A stretch of DNA of 14,006 bases from the NCBI RefSeq assembly GCF_003334255.1, contig NZ_QOWU01000080.1. One strand, written 5' to 3'. Below, piece by piece: positions 3,214 to 13,037 of this stretch. This DNA is from Escherichia coli (GTDB lineage: Bacteria; Pseudomonadota; Gammaproteobacteria; Enterobacterales; Enterobacteriaceae). The notes below the pieces were generated by a model. The model searched no databases. It was given only the letters and a program-made list of their open reading frames with translations, and was not told the DNA's origin. Each line of letters starts with the position of its first letter. The stretch's first letter is position 1. Position numbers and translations under genes: made by a program.

Positions 3214-3767
3214 AATACCTGTATTGAATCCATTGGTGAGACGGTTAACAGCGTATTAGCTAACTGATATTTAGCCACCATCCACTGTCGTTGAACTTCT
3301 GGTGTTGCATCTGGCTGCTTACTTGCACGCCCTATTTTCAAAAATTCAGTAGTTGGCTGCCCGCCTACCGGAGCTAATGATACTTTTTTACTACGATAAC
3401 TAAATTCAAAATAGAAACGTCCAGTAAGACCTTGCTGTGCTTCGGTTTGGTCAAAGTCGACATCTAATATAAAACGATTTTCCGACACCATGCGGGTTAC
3501 CAACTCAAAACAATCACGGGCCCCCCTCCCCGGAAAGGCTGTAAATAATGCTAATTCCCGACGTTGCAGGGGCTCATCCTGCGGTGATAGCAATGAAATA
3601 GCCCTTTGTAGTAACCGAAATCCCAGTACTACGCCACCAACAGCATCATACCCATGATAATTGAAGGCATCCTGAACCGAGAAAGAAAAAAGCTGATGAT
3701 TATCTGCAACGTTTAGGGATGGCATAACCCATTGGGATACAGGGATAAGACCTGGATTAGTACTCAT
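3210..3767 (-). CDS. Hypothetical protein (185 aa), first gene of the ABC operon; paralog of the 290-820 product
   Basis: ORF overlaps the permease start by 4 bp; shares conserved blocks with the 176-aa ORF (see finding). Confidence 0.6.
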   Translation of the reverse strand: MSTNPGLIPVSQWVMPSLNVADNHQLFSFSVQDAFNYHGYDAVGGVVLGFRLLQRAISLLSPQDEPLQRRELALFTAFPGRGARDCFELVTRMVSENRFILDVDFDQTEAQQGLTGRFYFEFSYRSKKVSLAPVGGQPTTEFLKIGRASKQPDATPEVQRQWMVAKYQLANTLLTVSPMDSIQVL

Positions 3768-3857
3768 GTCAACCGCCTTTCTCTTTTTATAGTAAGAGTT
3801 ATTCCCTCATGTCGATTCTAGATACAAATACAAACAACATCAATTCTCATTCCCTCT

Positions 3858-4143
3858 TCAGGTTATTTGCCTCGCTGTTTTTCTCACTGTCTCCGTTATG
3901 GTGTACACCACCTCTTCCAGTAACCGACACTTCGCCGAACTCAGGAAACCGTAGTACCTCACCATACGGAACCCCTGAGGTAGCCAGGAGGCTGCAAATC
4001 GGGGTGTGGCAGAATATGAGCTTTCAGAGTAACCATCCAGAATGAGTTCCCATGTCACACAACCTGGAGCACCAGAAAGTCCACACCAGAATGGTGAAAG
4101 AGGTTCTGAAAGCCGTCGCCAGAGCCAATAATCACCCTTATCA
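3858..4143 (-). pseudogene. Possible IS91-family (Y2 rolling-circle) transposase C-terminal remnant
   Basis: Minus-strand translation contains LPQGFRMVRYYGFLSSAKCRLL, resembling the conserved C-terminal block of IS91-family transposases as recalled (LPKGF.RIRHYGFLAN); ends abruptly at the IR at 4144. Confidence 0.3.
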
Positions 4144-4181
4144 GGGGTTCCGTGGGAATTTCTGCGATAACACCCGCTAAG
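4144..4181 (+). repeat. Tn3-family 38-bp terminal inverted repeat (left)
   Basis: GGGGTTCCGTGGGAATTTCTGCGATAACACCCGCTAAG. Confidence 0.65.
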
Positions 4182-4318
4182 CGATTCCTCCCTGACGGAA
4201 ATCACTTGTTTTCCGTCAGGTCCTGCAGTTGAAGAAAATTGAATCCATAAATCTGTGATTTTTTGCGTGACAAACCCTGTCGGAATGAGAAACTGTACGG
4301 AAACTTCAATTTTAAGGT

Positions 4319-4504
4319 TTGTCGTACATTCGCAGCCAGGGGATCATTATACCGGAAGAGCTCTTGTCCAGTGTATCACCACTACCATGGGGTCATATCT
4401 CACTCACTGGAGATTACCTGTGGAACGAAATTGACCATCCCCTTGAACGATACAGGCCACTTCGTACTAATCGCTTCAATCCAAAGAACTTCACTTTTCC
4501 TTAG
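4319..4504 (+). pseudogene. tnpA: Tn3-family transposase TnpA C-terminal remnant
   Basis: Translation ends PLPWGHISLTGDYLWNEIDHPLERYRPLRTNRF, resembling the extreme C-terminus of Tn3-family TnpA (LGWEHINLTGDYLW...RPLRP as recalled); stop codon lies inside the right IR, as in Tn3-family transposons. Confidence 0.5.
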
Positions 4505-4537
4505 CGTGTGTTATCGCAGAAATGCCCACGGAACGCC
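4500..4537 (-). repeat. Tn3-family 38-bp terminal inverted repeat (right)
   Basis: Reverse complement reads GGCGTTCCGTGGGCATTTCTGCGATAACACACGCTAAG. Confidence 0.65.
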
Positions 4538-4879
4538 GTTATGGCCGTGAATGTGCCGACGACCTGGATTAATTCTGGTATGAGTGAGTTTGACAGCCGG
4601 TTGTTTGCAGCCATTAACGATATGCTGCTGGATATGCTGGCCGCTGTTGCCAGAAGGGACTATGAACAACGGCGGGAACGCCAGAAACAGGGGATAGAGA
4701 AAGCAAGGAAAGACGGCAAATATAAAGGGCGTAAACCTAATCAAGCCAGACATGATGCAATTATCAGGTTGATAGAAAGTGGCAGCTCCTGGACACAGGT
4801 ACAGAAGGTGCTAGGGTGCAGCCGCGGCACAATCAGTAGCGCAATAAAACGTAAATCCCGGCAATCCTCCGGTGAGTAG
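4508..4879 (+). pseudogene. Serine recombinase (resolvase/invertase) C-terminal fragment; catalytic N-terminal domain absent
   Basis: Contains LLDMLAAVARRDYEQRRERQKQGIEKARKDGKYKGRKP followed by an HTH-like tail (SWTQVQKVLGCSRGTISSAIKR); convincing similarity begins around 4570-4580; no S-T-x-x-Q catalytic region upstream. Confidence 0.5.
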
Positions 4880-4994
4880 GGTAGGGTGAGCTCAATAAAC
4901 TGGCTGACGTTATTTATTAGGGAGGTGCTGAGGTGGATATTTTTAAAAAGCAAATTGAATGTTGTAACTAATGAATATCAAAATAAAAGGCCGC

Positions 4995-5453: not shown

Positions 5454-5623
5454 CACAGCACCACCTGTTTGTTCAGCCAGGGCTTTAATTCGTTCATACC
5501 CAGATAGCGCAGGGTTTAGAAGCAAGGGAGGCACACTGTACAGCGCCAACACAAAGATTATACAGATGCACGCATAAAATTCATTTAAAGAAATGGCCAT
5601 TGACAGACAATCTGAAGTCAAAC

Positions 5624-5650
5624 TAGACAACTGGTGTCTAGTGCCATAAT
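5624..5650 (+). promoter_or_regulatory. Putative sigma70 promoter for the small RNA
   Basis: TAGACA (5624-5629), 15-nt spacer, extended -10 TGcCATAAT (5642-5650); alternative -10 TAATAT at 5647-5652 with a 17-nt spacer. Confidence 0.3.
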
Positions 5651-5656
5651 ATTGTG

Positions 5657-5748
5657 GATGTTGGATGTAGAGTATCTTCCTCCAGTCAGAGCCACCAACT
5701 CAGGACTGGAAAACACGAAAAAGCCCGATTACCAGTCGGGTTTTTTTG
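5657..5748 (+). ncRNA. Candidate ~90-nt small RNA (AgrB-like antitoxin), divergent from the toxin gene
   Basis: Promoter-like elements upstream and a strong intrinsic terminator at the 3' end; body contains repeat copy 2, which is imperfectly complementary to the minus-strand toxin transcript at copy 1. Confidence 0.4.
5722..5748 (+). terminator. Rho-independent terminator
   Basis: Stem GCCCGA / TCGGGT with loop TTACCAG, followed by seven T; A-tract upstream, so possibly bidirectional. Confidence 0.6.
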
Positions 5749-6149
5749 TGCCTGTCGTTCGACTGTTCTTCCGTTTTTTCCCTTCATTTGGGGGATTTTC
5801 TTTCAGTTTTTTTGTTAAGTCCAATGCTGCCGGTCGCGTTGGCCAACAGATCAATGCCGTTATCGGCGTTTCCATTAATCCTTTTTTTCAGTAAGTTGCA
5901 GCACAAAAGATGATTAAAAAGCTATCAGTTTTTTTGATGGATACAGTAGCGGCGGTACGCTGCGTGAAATCTGAGGTTTTCGGGTAGGATTGGTCGCGAG
6001 AATTTACGAGAGAGCGACGGGCGGTTTCTGCACTGAGACAAGATACAACCGTTCTTTTTTTTCCCCTTCACGCCGTAGCTGAGCGATCTCGTCTCTGTTA
6101 CGCTGAAGTTCAATGATAGTCGTAATATTTAACTCTTTACCTCTTTCGT

Positions 6150-8899: not shown

Positions 8900-8916
8900 C
8901 TCAAAGAGGAAGCACT

Positions 8917-9141
8917 ATGTTTACATGTAACTATAGCCATGCTCGCGATAACCTGGCCTCGTTGCTCGAGCTGGCGGTTGATGAAAATCAGCCAGTTGAG
9001 ATTCAGCGCCGTAAAGGTGGCGCAGCTGTACTGGTTGATAAAGACGCTTTTGAACGATACCGTAAAGCGGCTCTTGATGCTGAGTTTGCTGAGATCATGC
9101 AAAGTCATGGGACGGCCTATACGGAGCTTTCTAAGCGATGA
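8917..9141 (+). CDS. phd: Phd-family antitoxin
   Basis: 74 aa, MFTCNYSHARDNLASLLELAVDENQPVEIQRRKGGAAVLVDKDAFERYRKAALDAEFAEIM..., closely resembling P1 Phd as recalled; GAGGA 6 nt upstream; stop overlaps the doc start (ATGA). Confidence 0.85.
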   Translation: MFTCNYSHARDNLASLLELAVDENQPVEIQRRKGGAAVLVDKDAFERYRKAALDAEFAEIMQSHGTAYTELSKR

Positions 9142-9524
9142 AATTCGTTAGTTCACAGGAAGTGATTGAGTTTCATGACCGCTTGATTTCGCGTGATGGT
9201 GGCGTGGCGGGTATGCCAGAACCCGGTCGCGCTGACGCGATCATTCATCGTGTTTTGAACATGTATCATTATGAAGGTGTGACAGATATTATGGATCTGG
9301 CTGCCGTGTATTTAGTTGCTATTGCTCGTGGTCACATTTTCAACGATGCAAATAAGCGAACAGCCTTGTTTGTTGCACAGGTTTTTTTAAAACGGAATGG
9401 TGTACATATTATTAGTTCACGTATTTCGTTTGATGAAATGCAAATTATCGCTTTGAATGCTGCAACAGGAGAATATAACTGGAAGATGGTTTCTGACCAT
9501 CTTAAAGCCATTATTCTAAATTAG
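9138..9524 (+). CDS. doc: Doc toxin (Fic/Doc family)
   Basis: 128 aa with the Doc-type motif HIFNDANKRTA and GMPEPGRADAII, resembling P1 Doc; translationally coupled to phd. Confidence 0.9.
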   Translation: MKFVSSQEVIEFHDRLISRDGGVAGMPEPGRADAIIHRVLNMYHYEGVTDIMDLAAVYLVAIARGHIFNDANKRTALFVAQVFLKRNGVHIISSRISFDEMQIIALNAATGEYNWKMVSDHLKAIILN

Positions 9525-10567: not shown

Positions 10568-11158
10568 CTATACAGTAACAGTTTGCTGTTTCGCTCTAAC
10601 TCTCAGAATTGTTTGCCGTGTGGTTCGGAATTCCCTGGCAATAGCACTTATACTTGCCCCAGACTTAATGCGTTCGAGTACCTTCTGTTTTTGTTCTTCA
10701 TTTAATACCGGTGGGCGACCAAAACGTTTTCCTGCATCCCGTGCTCTTGCTATCCCTGAATAAGTTCGTTCAAGTAAAAGATCTCGTTCAAATTCAGCGA
10801 CCGCTGAAATCACTTGCATTGTCATTTTTCCTGCCGGACTGGTCAGATCAACACCACCTAATGCCAGGCAATGCACCCTGATGCCAGATTCGGTCAGTTG
10901 CTCCACTGTTTTCCTGATATCCATTGCATTACGACCGAGGCGATCCAGTTTTGTGACTATCAATACATCGCCACTTTCCAGACGATCAAGCAACCGGTTA
11001 AAACTAGGACGTTCACTGGCTGCTACTGAGCCACTAATTTGTTCTTCGATTATTCGTTGGGGTCTGACGTTAAAACCCGCGCTTTCGATTTCCCGACGTT
11101 GATTTTCGGTCGTCTGTTCCAGAGTGGAAACCCGACAATAGGCAAAAATTCGAGACAT
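10568..11158 (-). CDS. tnpR: Serine recombinase, Tn3-family resolvase TnpR
   Basis: 196 aa; N-terminal catalytic motif [22 protein letters not shown]-helix region, C-terminal HTH; divergent from tnpA. Confidence 0.9.
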
Positions 11159-11318: not shown

Positions 11319-13037
11319 ATGCCACGGCGACAAATACTGAGTAGTGAAGAGCAAGCTCGCCTGCTGGTTATACCAGATGATGAAATTATTCTGACCAGAA
11401 TGTGTTTTCTTTGTGATAAAGATATTGCTCTCATTAATAAGCACCGGCGTCCAGCTAATCGCCTGGGCTTTGCGGTATTACTCTGTTACCTGCGTGGGCC
11501 TGGATTTGTTCCGGACAAAAATAATGTTCCCCACTGTGGCGTTGTATCCAGAATTGCTTCAAGACTGAAGCTTCAGCCCGATTTATGGCATGAATATGCA
11601 GCCAGAGAGCAAACCCGCTGGGAGCATCTGGCTGAACTTTATCGCTACCTGAAATTATCTCCGTTCAGCCGAACTCTGCAAAAAGACTGCATTCGGCATC
11701 TGCATTCCTATGCCATGCGAACAGATAAAGGATTTACTCTGGCGGAGGAAATGCTCAGTTGGCTACATAACAATAATGTTATTTTCCCGTCGGTTGATGT
11801 GATCGAACGGACGCTTGCCGAAGCCGTCACACTTGCTGACAGATCTGTTTTTTCGGCACTTACGACACAACTGGGAAAGCAGCATAGATCTGCACTCGAC
11901 AGCCTGCTCATATCAGAAGGGGAACAACCTTCCCGACTTGCGTGGCTACTTCAGCCTCCCGGTAAAATTAACGGTAAAAACGTGCTGCAACATATCGATC
12001 GACTTAATTCTATCACCGCGCTGGAATTACCTGATGGTATTGAGCTTTCCGTTCACCAGAACAAATTACTCAAACTGGCGCGTGAGGGCCGAAAAATGAG
12101 CAGCAGAGATCTGGCAAAATTCACCGATATCAGACGTTACGCTACGCTGGTTTGTGTCATTCAGGAAGCCAGAGCAACATTGACTGATGAAGTTATCGAG
12201 CTACACGAACGCATTATGGGCGGTCTGTTCAGCCAGGCAAAACGCACACAAGCCGAGAGGCTTCAGTTAACAGGCAAACTTATCCAGAGCAAGTTAAGAC
12301 AATATGTTACTGTCGGTCAGGCGCTACTGCATGCCAGAAAGTCAGGTGAAGATCCCTGGGCCGCGATAGAAGATGTTATTCCCAGGCAGGAGTTCGTCAA
12401 CAGCCTGGAAGAAACACAGTTGCTGTCCCGTAAAGGTAATTTCGATCCTCTTCACCTGATCACCGAAAAATACAGCACACTTCGAAAATACGCTCCACGA
12501 ATGTTGTCAGCATTGCAGTTTGTAGCGACACCTGCGGCGCAGCCGCTCAGCGATGCACTGGATACTATAAGGGAAATATACCGTAAGCAGCTTCGTAACG
12601 TTCCGCCTACAGCGCCAACAGCATTTATTCCTGAAAGCTGGCGAAAACTGGTATTAACGCCTTCAGGCATCAATCGAAAATACTATGAGTTTTGTGTACT
12701 GAATGAACTCAAGGGGGCGTTACGTTCCGGAGATATTTGGGTAAAAGGGTCGCGTCGTTACAGAAATTTTGATGATTATCTTATCCCGGTCACTGAATTT
12801 GATAAATCCCGACAAAATGACCAGTTACAACTGGCTGTGCAGACTGATTGCCATGCATATCTTCAGGCCCGTATGACGCTTCTTGCATCTCGTCTGGAAG
12901 AAGTTAACGCAATGGCTCTTGCCGGTGAGCTGCCGGATGTTGATATTTCAGATAAAGGAGTGAAAATCACTCCGCTGGAGAACGGGGTTCTGAGGTGTAC
13001 TGGCAATAGCGGACACTACCATTTGTTCTTTTTTTAA
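11319..13037 (+). pseudogene. tnpA: Tn3-family transposase TnpA, N-terminal ~557 aa only; interrupted by IS insertion at about 12990
   Basis: N-terminus MPRRQILSSEEQARLL...RPANRLGFAVLLCYLR closely resembles Tn3-family TnpA; full-length TnpA is about 1000 aa. The last ~15 codons (LRCTGNSGHYHLFFF) are read from the IS end. Confidence 0.85.

Follow-up and report, generated by a model that had tools for sequence, protein, structure and literature searches.

We found that a 394-bp segment of Escherichia coli plasmid DNA, at positions 4144-4537 of the 14,006-nt stretch analysed here (referred to below as the window), is an internal-deletion derivative of a 3,788-bp tnpR-tnpA transposon of the Tn3 family. 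The segment is very probably a fixed, non-autonomous relic of that cryptic transposon, similar in form to TIMEs and with no sign of mobility. TIMEs are an established class of short, gene-less Tn3-family derivatives, exemplified by IS101, TIME244, IMU, MITESen1 and TIME1-4 of Pseudomonas (PMC4133298, PMC13367494). The window sequence belongs to the pECOED/pDETEC45 group of E. coli plasmids. An internally deleted Tn3-family transposon had been proposed in the initial annotation of this DNA and was borne out by alignment: both ends of the segment align to full-length copies of the transposon, and the approximately 3.39 kb that separate these ends in the full-length copies are absent.

Structure of the 394-bp segment and its parent

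The following features, given in window coordinates, were distinguished within the segment.

4144..4181, plus strand: IRL, the left terminal inverted repeat, GGGGTTCCGTGGGAATTTCTGCGATAACACCCGCTAAG, identical to the IRL of the full-length parent
4191..4220, no strand assigned: palindrome with 14-nt arms and a 2-nt spacer, made up of two inverted TGACGGAAA half-sites (repeat search, motif scan, alignment)
4221..4327, plus strand: rest of the IRL-tnpR intergenic region (BLAST, motif scan, alignment)
4325..4329, plus strand: deletion junction, with the 5-bp microhomology TACAT (BLAST overlap of both parent segments)
4325..4504, plus strand: tnpA remnant, the last 59 codons and TAG stop (BLAST to parent, translation, NF033527)
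4500..4537, minus strand: IRR, the right terminal inverted repeat, which reads GGCGTTCCGTGGGCATTTCTGCGATAACACACGCTAAG from its outer end

A repeat search of the window returned the 2 arms, 4144-4181 and 4500-4537, as sequences of 38 nt each that are 92% complementary (35/38) and have 318 nt between them, in agreement with the repeats first described. When the left arm was used as a query with up to 3 mismatches, exactly 2 sites were found in the window, against 0.00 expected from 200 shuffles. The element thus displays the 38-bp length, GGGG outer end and inner ACGYTAAG-type box by which Tn3-family repeats are recognized. The GGGG sequence had been assigned to both outer ends; we observed it in the left repeat, which has GGGG as its outer end and CCGCTAAG as its inner end, whereas the right repeat has GGCG and ACGCTAAG, respectively. 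Altogether, the IRR differs from the IRL at 3 positions, 2 of which also differ in the parent. The third is repeat position 3, where the plus-strand base at 4535 is G and the parent has C. Full-length parent copies that we examined carry the canonical base at this position, with GGGG at the start of both ends, and among all copies examined the change was seen only in the 394-bp element. It falls in the conserved GGGGT "box A", a sequence that, in the Tn4430 transpososome, lies beside the scissile bond and makes trans contacts with the linker, scaffold and RNase H domains (PMC9579193). A direct repeat of 16 nt (3749-3764 and 4561-4576, 88% match) was also detected; it lies off the element ends and was treated as a chance occurrence.

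Local BLAST located the internal deletion precisely. Positions 1-186 of the segment correspond to positions 1-186 of the parent at 100% identity, and positions 182-394 (213 bp) correspond to parent positions 3575-3787 with 2 differences, one at window position 4402 and the other at repeat position 3. The segment therefore agrees with its parent in its repeats, in the IRL-tnpR intergenic region and in the tnpA stop inside IRR, and differs from it in lacking the ~3.39 kb, in the changed IRR position 3 and in having no 5-bp duplication. The missing DNA comprises all of tnpR and codons 1-929 of tnpA. The overlap between the 2 alignments, TACAT, is common to the start region of tnpR (parent 182-186) and to tnpA codons 930-931. 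In the parent, the tnpR ATG begins at the last 2 bases of TACAT; in the segment, this former ATG has become ATT (4328-4330), in frame with the TnpA tail. The loss of ~3.39 kb thus fused the start codon of tnpR with codon 930 of tnpA at TACAT, a junction pattern that fits replication slippage or illegitimate recombination, not resolvase action. A resolvase-made deletion was rejected on 2 grounds: on the left, the break coincides with the start codon of tnpR, where the intergenic region borders that gene, and the joint is a 5-bp microhomology inside tnpA; this argument depends on where the putative res, considered below, is placed.

Translation of 4325-4504 gives YIRSQGIIIPEELLSSVSPLPWGHISLTGDYLWNEIDHPLERYRPLRTNRFNPKNFTFP followed by the stop, equal to the last 59 residues of the 988-aa parent TnpA and matching positions 923-954 of NCBIfam model NF033527 (Tn3 family transposase; E 4.4e-6). 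The segment is accordingly tied to a Tn3-type DDE transposase through its parent and through this 59-residue remnant. The identification of a TnpA C-terminus in the initial annotation was correct, and the length given for it, ~40 codons, was too short, as 59 codons remain. As had been pointed out, the TAG stop (4502-4504) lies inside the right repeat, which is also its position in the parent tnpA. The single difference between the remnant and the parent gene is synonymous (window 4402, A versus G). PGAP lists 4319-4504 as a partial pseudogene, truncated N-terminally.

The tail of tnpA had been taken for the sole remnant besides the repeats. Alignment with related elements indicated otherwise, in that the entire conserved region between IRL and tnpR, 145 bp, also survives in the segment. 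In the parent, where the coding sequences of tnpR and tnpA overlap and the latter runs into the right repeat, this region is the only non-coding DNA, and by elimination it is the place to which we assign res. For the alignment of the left region we used sister elements, 71-85% identical, from Salmonella, IncX1 plasmids, Roseateles and Polymorphum. Conservation was evident in the repeat itself, in the palindrome and in a block running up to the start of tnpR. The palindrome at 4191-4220 is kept in 4 of the 5 clade members, including the alpha- and betaproteobacterial relatives, and is a putative resolvase-binding site and a candidate for res site I. The remainder, 4221-4327, includes the conserved block TTTTTGCGTGACAAACCCTGTCGGAATGAGAAACTGTACGGAAAC...TTTAAGGTTTGTCGTACA, with further TGwCGGAA-like half-sites, and may contain res sites II/III together with the tnpR promoter and ribosome-binding site. 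With regard to cointegrate resolution, the segment has thus lost the resolvase gene and kept the palindrome and half-sites of the putative res. An Rfam search inside the 394-bp element gave no match, and a scan of 4000-4950 for promoters and terminators gave nothing above shuffle expectation.

The intact parent, 3,788 bp in length, has the layout IRL - res/promoter (putative) - tnpR - tnpA - IRR. Its tnpR encodes a 207-aa serine recombinase (WP_000904945.1) and overlaps by 20 bp with tnpA, the product of which (WP_000008826.1, 988 aa) reaches 916.9 bits on NF033527, for which the cut-off is 500, and contains the Pfam domains DDE_Tnp_Tn3 (E 2e-134) and DUF4158. Full copies are present in plasmid pSLy2 (NZ_CP015914.1; L002:4427-8213, with the same left repeat) and in the chromosome NZ_AP045181.1, and are surrounded by 5-bp duplications, TCGTA in pSLy2 and TTTAA in the chromosomal bcsB gene (L022). 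Using the 394-bp segment as a query we obtained matches in 172 of 5,426 complete E. coli genomes, some strains having several copies on different replicons. The exact parent TnpA sequence occurs on at least 953 contigs, and hundreds of PLSDB plasmids have a "Tn3 family transposase" gene whose 3' end is matched by the right 213 bp of the segment. On these sequence comparisons, the parent is a genuine, widespread and apparently active cryptic Tn3-family transposon that is common in plasmids of E. coli and Salmonella. Among the tblastn matches listed, its TnpA is 36-38% identical to those of TnAs1, TnAs3 and ISPa38. The databases, protein cluster names included, give it only generic "Tn3 family transposase" labels, and literature searches on the repeat sequence and on "3787 bp" with transposon returned nothing relevant. 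Tn5403 was considered as a candidate for the parent and was not retained, since nothing in the literature examined ties it to the parent sequence.

Several parent copies show alterations of their own. The pSLy2 tnpR (L002:4610-5213) has a 1-nt deletion relative to intact copies, which makes that element 3,787 rather than 3,788 bp long and probably resolvase-defective. In pUTME-12-1 (NZ_CP157096.1), an otherwise intact copy has a ~221-bp tandem duplication at the 3' end of tnpA (L015:3560-4009), so that an incomplete right repeat precedes a complete one and the element is 4,008 bp long. A copy in the lsr operon of the E. coli Res13-Lact-PEA12-26 chromosome (L021:857-4213) is without the left repeat and tnpR, adjoins a truncated lsrC-like permease gene, and appears to be another relic of the parent of the adjacent-deletion type.

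Flanking DNA and the missing target duplication

The segment is bordered by 2 further features.

3851..4143, minus strand: left flank, remnant of an IS91-family transposase gene (NF033538, E 1e-4, on the minus-strand translation; sequence identity)
4538..4879, plus strand: right flank, 342 nt from the 3' end of an IncX1-type serine recombinase gene that measures 645 nt when intact (PGAP: resolvase pseudogene, missing N-terminus)

The sequences next to the segment are TATCA on the left and GTTAT on the right, so that the 5-bp target duplication typical of the Tn3 family is absent, as noted previously. The proposal that the flanks had been rearranged was upheld, in that the 2 flanks are unrelated to each other and each is uninterrupted in other plasmids. 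The left flank, in which PGAP lists partial pseudogenes, is 95.6% identical to locus L004 and 84-96% identical to the IS91-family element in locus L005, and continues unbroken across the breakpoint in pAPEC-O2-ColV, with ...CCCTTATCA before and GTCCGTATTT (GTCCG...) after it. An ABC-transporter cluster is located beside the IS91 remnant on this side. The right-flank recombinase gene lacks its first 101 codons and is intact in IncX1 plasmids such as pFORC75_2, which have ...ATATTCGA before the breakpoint and GTTATGGCC (GTTATGG...) after it; IncX1-like DNA extends rightward from here to about window position 5500-5780. Since both breakpoints fall exactly on the repeat tips, each junction looks like a true transposon-target joint, and the missing duplication is attributable to flanks that are unrelated DNA brought together at a rearrangement junction. 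Within the IncX1-like DNA, at 5661-5748 on the plus strand, we also observed a match to the Rfam AgrB antisense RNA (RF02891; 68.8 bits, gathering score 40), where related plasmids carry DinQ-like (dqlB) type I toxin genes.

The element would mark a joint produced by one of the usual side-reactions of replicative transposition in the Tn3 family, candidates for which are adjacent deletion by intramolecular transposition, an unresolved cointegrate, and res-mediated or homologous recombination between 2 copies. We looked for other products of such an event in pDETEC45, which was scanned whole, and found there no second parent copy; the 5' portion of the recombinase gene was likewise missing, and the IS91-like sequence did not continue beside the element. 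As for the reciprocal junctions (recombinase N-terminus, GTTAT and IRL in one case; IRR, TATCA and the IS91-like continuation in the other), no PLSDB record covers both halves of either. With neither reciprocal junction in PLSDB, the data fit either order of internal deletion and flank rearrangement.

It is possible, although we consider it clearly the less probable course, that the 2 ends came from separate full copies of the parent, one interrupting the IS91-like remnant and one the recombinase gene. The 2 copies would have been on one plasmid, or at the 2 junctions of an unresolved cointegrate, and a single TACAT-mediated deletion would have run from the tnpR start of the first copy to the tnpA 3' end of the second. 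One event would then account for the missing duplication and the deletion alike, and the flanks do derive from different backbones, IncX1-like on the right and the IS91 remnant with the ABC-transporter cluster on the left. Copies with defective tnpR, which would leave cointegrates unresolved, exist as well, as exemplified by the 1-nt deletion in pSLy2. Yet target immunity of the Tn3 type disfavours the presence of 2 copies on one replicon (PMC9579193), and neither ancestral insertion was found in any PLSDB plasmid. Moreover, the present sequence fits a two-step route equally well and cannot distinguish the 2 courses.

Distribution and mobility

As a specific probe for the segment we used the 27-mer AAGGTTTGTCGTACATTCGCAGCCAGG, which spans the deletion junction. 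It had no match in 100,044 species-representative genomes, and it identified 7 metagenome contigs (JGI/ENA) in which the flanks are identical on both sides, the GGCG end is the same and there is no more than 1 mismatch over 394 bp. The full 394 bp is present in 6 PLSDB plasmids and 5 complete RefSeq E. coli genomes, again at a single locus and with the same DNA on either side. Of the PLSDB records, those 6 alone cover at least 80% of the query, and no other short, two-ended derivative of the parent was found in that database. When additional copies with target duplications were sought, as had been recommended, 5-bp duplications were seen around full-length parents, and no copy of the short form was found at another site in PLSDB, the complete RefSeq E. 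coli genomes, the metagenomes or the species-representative genomes. By its structure (394 bp, within the 50-500 bp range; family repeats; no transposase gene apart from a 59-codon tnpA fragment) the segment conforms to a TIME or MITE, while by its distribution it does not, as it occupies one locus, rather than different sites, and has no direct repeats.

These data bear upon whether the segment is a functional Tn3-family TIME or MITE, one that transposes as a 394-bp unit with the parent TnpA supplied in trans and has lost its duplication only through later rearrangement. The retention of both 38-bp ends and an internal res-like region, which recalls IS101 and TIME244 (PMC13367494), would suit such an activity, as would the circulation of the cognate transposon in the same species, and known TIMEs are also often single-copy and without direct repeats (PMC4133298). 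Against this, the 13-plus occurrences all share one locus and the same flanks, PLSDB yielded no further short derivative of the parent with both ends, and the right end is substituted in the conserved GGGGT box that contacts catalytic domains (PMC9579193). Nor did pDETEC45, the one host plasmid scanned whole, carry a cognate transposase gene, and the other TnpA fragment in the window is only 27% identical. In the aggregate, we regard present-day transposition of the segment as improbable, and the suggestion that it could still be mobilised in trans was not sustained by the single locus with its identical flanks, the box A substitution and the lack of a cognate tnpA on pDETEC45.

A second Tn3-family element in the window was considered as a helper and rejected, its TnpA being 27% identical and truncated by IS600. 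This remnant consists of an intact-looking resolvase gene of 196 aa (10568-11158, minus strand), divergent from a tnpA (11319-13037, plus strand) that ends after 572 codons next to the IS600 copy. Identity to the corresponding proteins of the parent of the 394-bp segment is only 27% for its TnpA and 35% for its resolvase, and we regard this remnant as an unrelated element. Between the 2 transposon remnants lies a gene pair for a Phd/YefM antitoxin and a Doc toxin (8916-9523, plus strand), according to the annotation of an identical plasmid.

We favour the reading of the segment as a fixed relic, which most likely persists passively, through inheritance with the surrounding 10-14 kb of plasmid DNA. 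The relic has neither a transposase nor a resolvase of its own and carries a box A substitution at one end. Any residual activities would most plausibly be cis-acting: the repeats could bind the parent's TnpA and so provide the plasmid with Tn3-type target immunity, a property that disfavours 2 copies per replicon, and the res-like region could take part in recombination upon arrival of a cognate resolvase in the cell.

Whether the relic has been kept for a benefit to the plasmid is a separate matter, and selection of this kind seems to us even less probable than mobility. The benefit might consist in repeat-based immunity to the parent transposon or in an interfering peptide derived from the TnpA tail. 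With regard to the latter, the last 58-61 codons of TnpA now follow in frame, as a result of the deletion, on the intact region that holds the putative tnpR promoter and ribosome-binding site, the possible starts being ATT at 4328 and TTG at 4319. In the structure of Tn4430 TnpA, the C-terminal tail is one of 2 dimerisation interfaces, and a small tail peptide might for this reason interfere with an incoming transposase. Finally, a chance similarity of the TnpA-like tail, with repeats that match no Tn3-family element, had been named as the outcome that would overturn the annotation; it can be dismissed, as can an assembly artefact. Shuffles gave 0.00 expected sites, the TnpA tail and both arms match a characterisable Tn3-family transposon (99-100% identity for the arms), and the same arrangement is present in 6 plasmids that were finished independently and in 7 metagenome assemblies.

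Related elements and significance

The 394-bp element resembles TIMEs in being short and gene-less, in its 38-bp Tn3-family repeats and in an internal res-like region of the kind present in IS101 and TIME244. The res site of IS101, an element that Tn1000 mobilises, is functional, and that of TIME244 is Tn21-like (PMC13367494). Like many TIMEs, which are often found in single copy and without direct repeats (PMC4133298), the element is single-copy and lacks direct repeats. It differs from known TIMEs in that these occur at several sites, form composite transposons or have been shown to transpose, whereas the 394-bp element has a single locus, 59 recognisable tnpA codons and a mutated terminal box. 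Comparison with the Enterobacteriaceae TIME sequences (Table S2 of PMC13367494) revealed agreement at only 19-22 of 38 repeat positions with IS101, TIME244, IMU and MITESen1; the 394-bp element is therefore not identifiable as any of these 4 elements and must have come from a different parent.

A second type of relic was observed beside parG, for example at L016:5001-5208 in pSI102-2 (IncX1), where a sister transposon has left one end only. The part that remains runs from the left repeat through the res-like region into the first ~10 codons of tnpR, is 83-85% identical to the left arm of the 394-bp element, and has counterparts in the same identity band in ~190 PLSDB plasmids, mostly of IncX1 type; no genes were annotated under these sequences among the matches listed. 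These parG-adjacent relics are similar to the 394-bp element as decayed fragments of sister elements fixed in plasmid backbones, and differ from it in that one end is kept there and both ends are kept here.

Beyond annotation, the relic itself has little significance. The segment, now labelled as 2 "hypothetical protein" pseudogene fragments, can be annotated as a Tn3-family deletion derivative, and it marks the point at which recombination joined an IncX1-derived segment to the remainder of the plasmid, which helps to reconstruct the history of pECOED-like plasmids. Target immunity conferred by its repeats, if true, would be one more example of a well-known property of the Tn3 family. The parent, for its part, is a widespread and apparently active transposon with a TnpA less than 40% identical to those of named relatives, and its clade has left relics in ~190 plasmids that are mostly of the IncX1 type.
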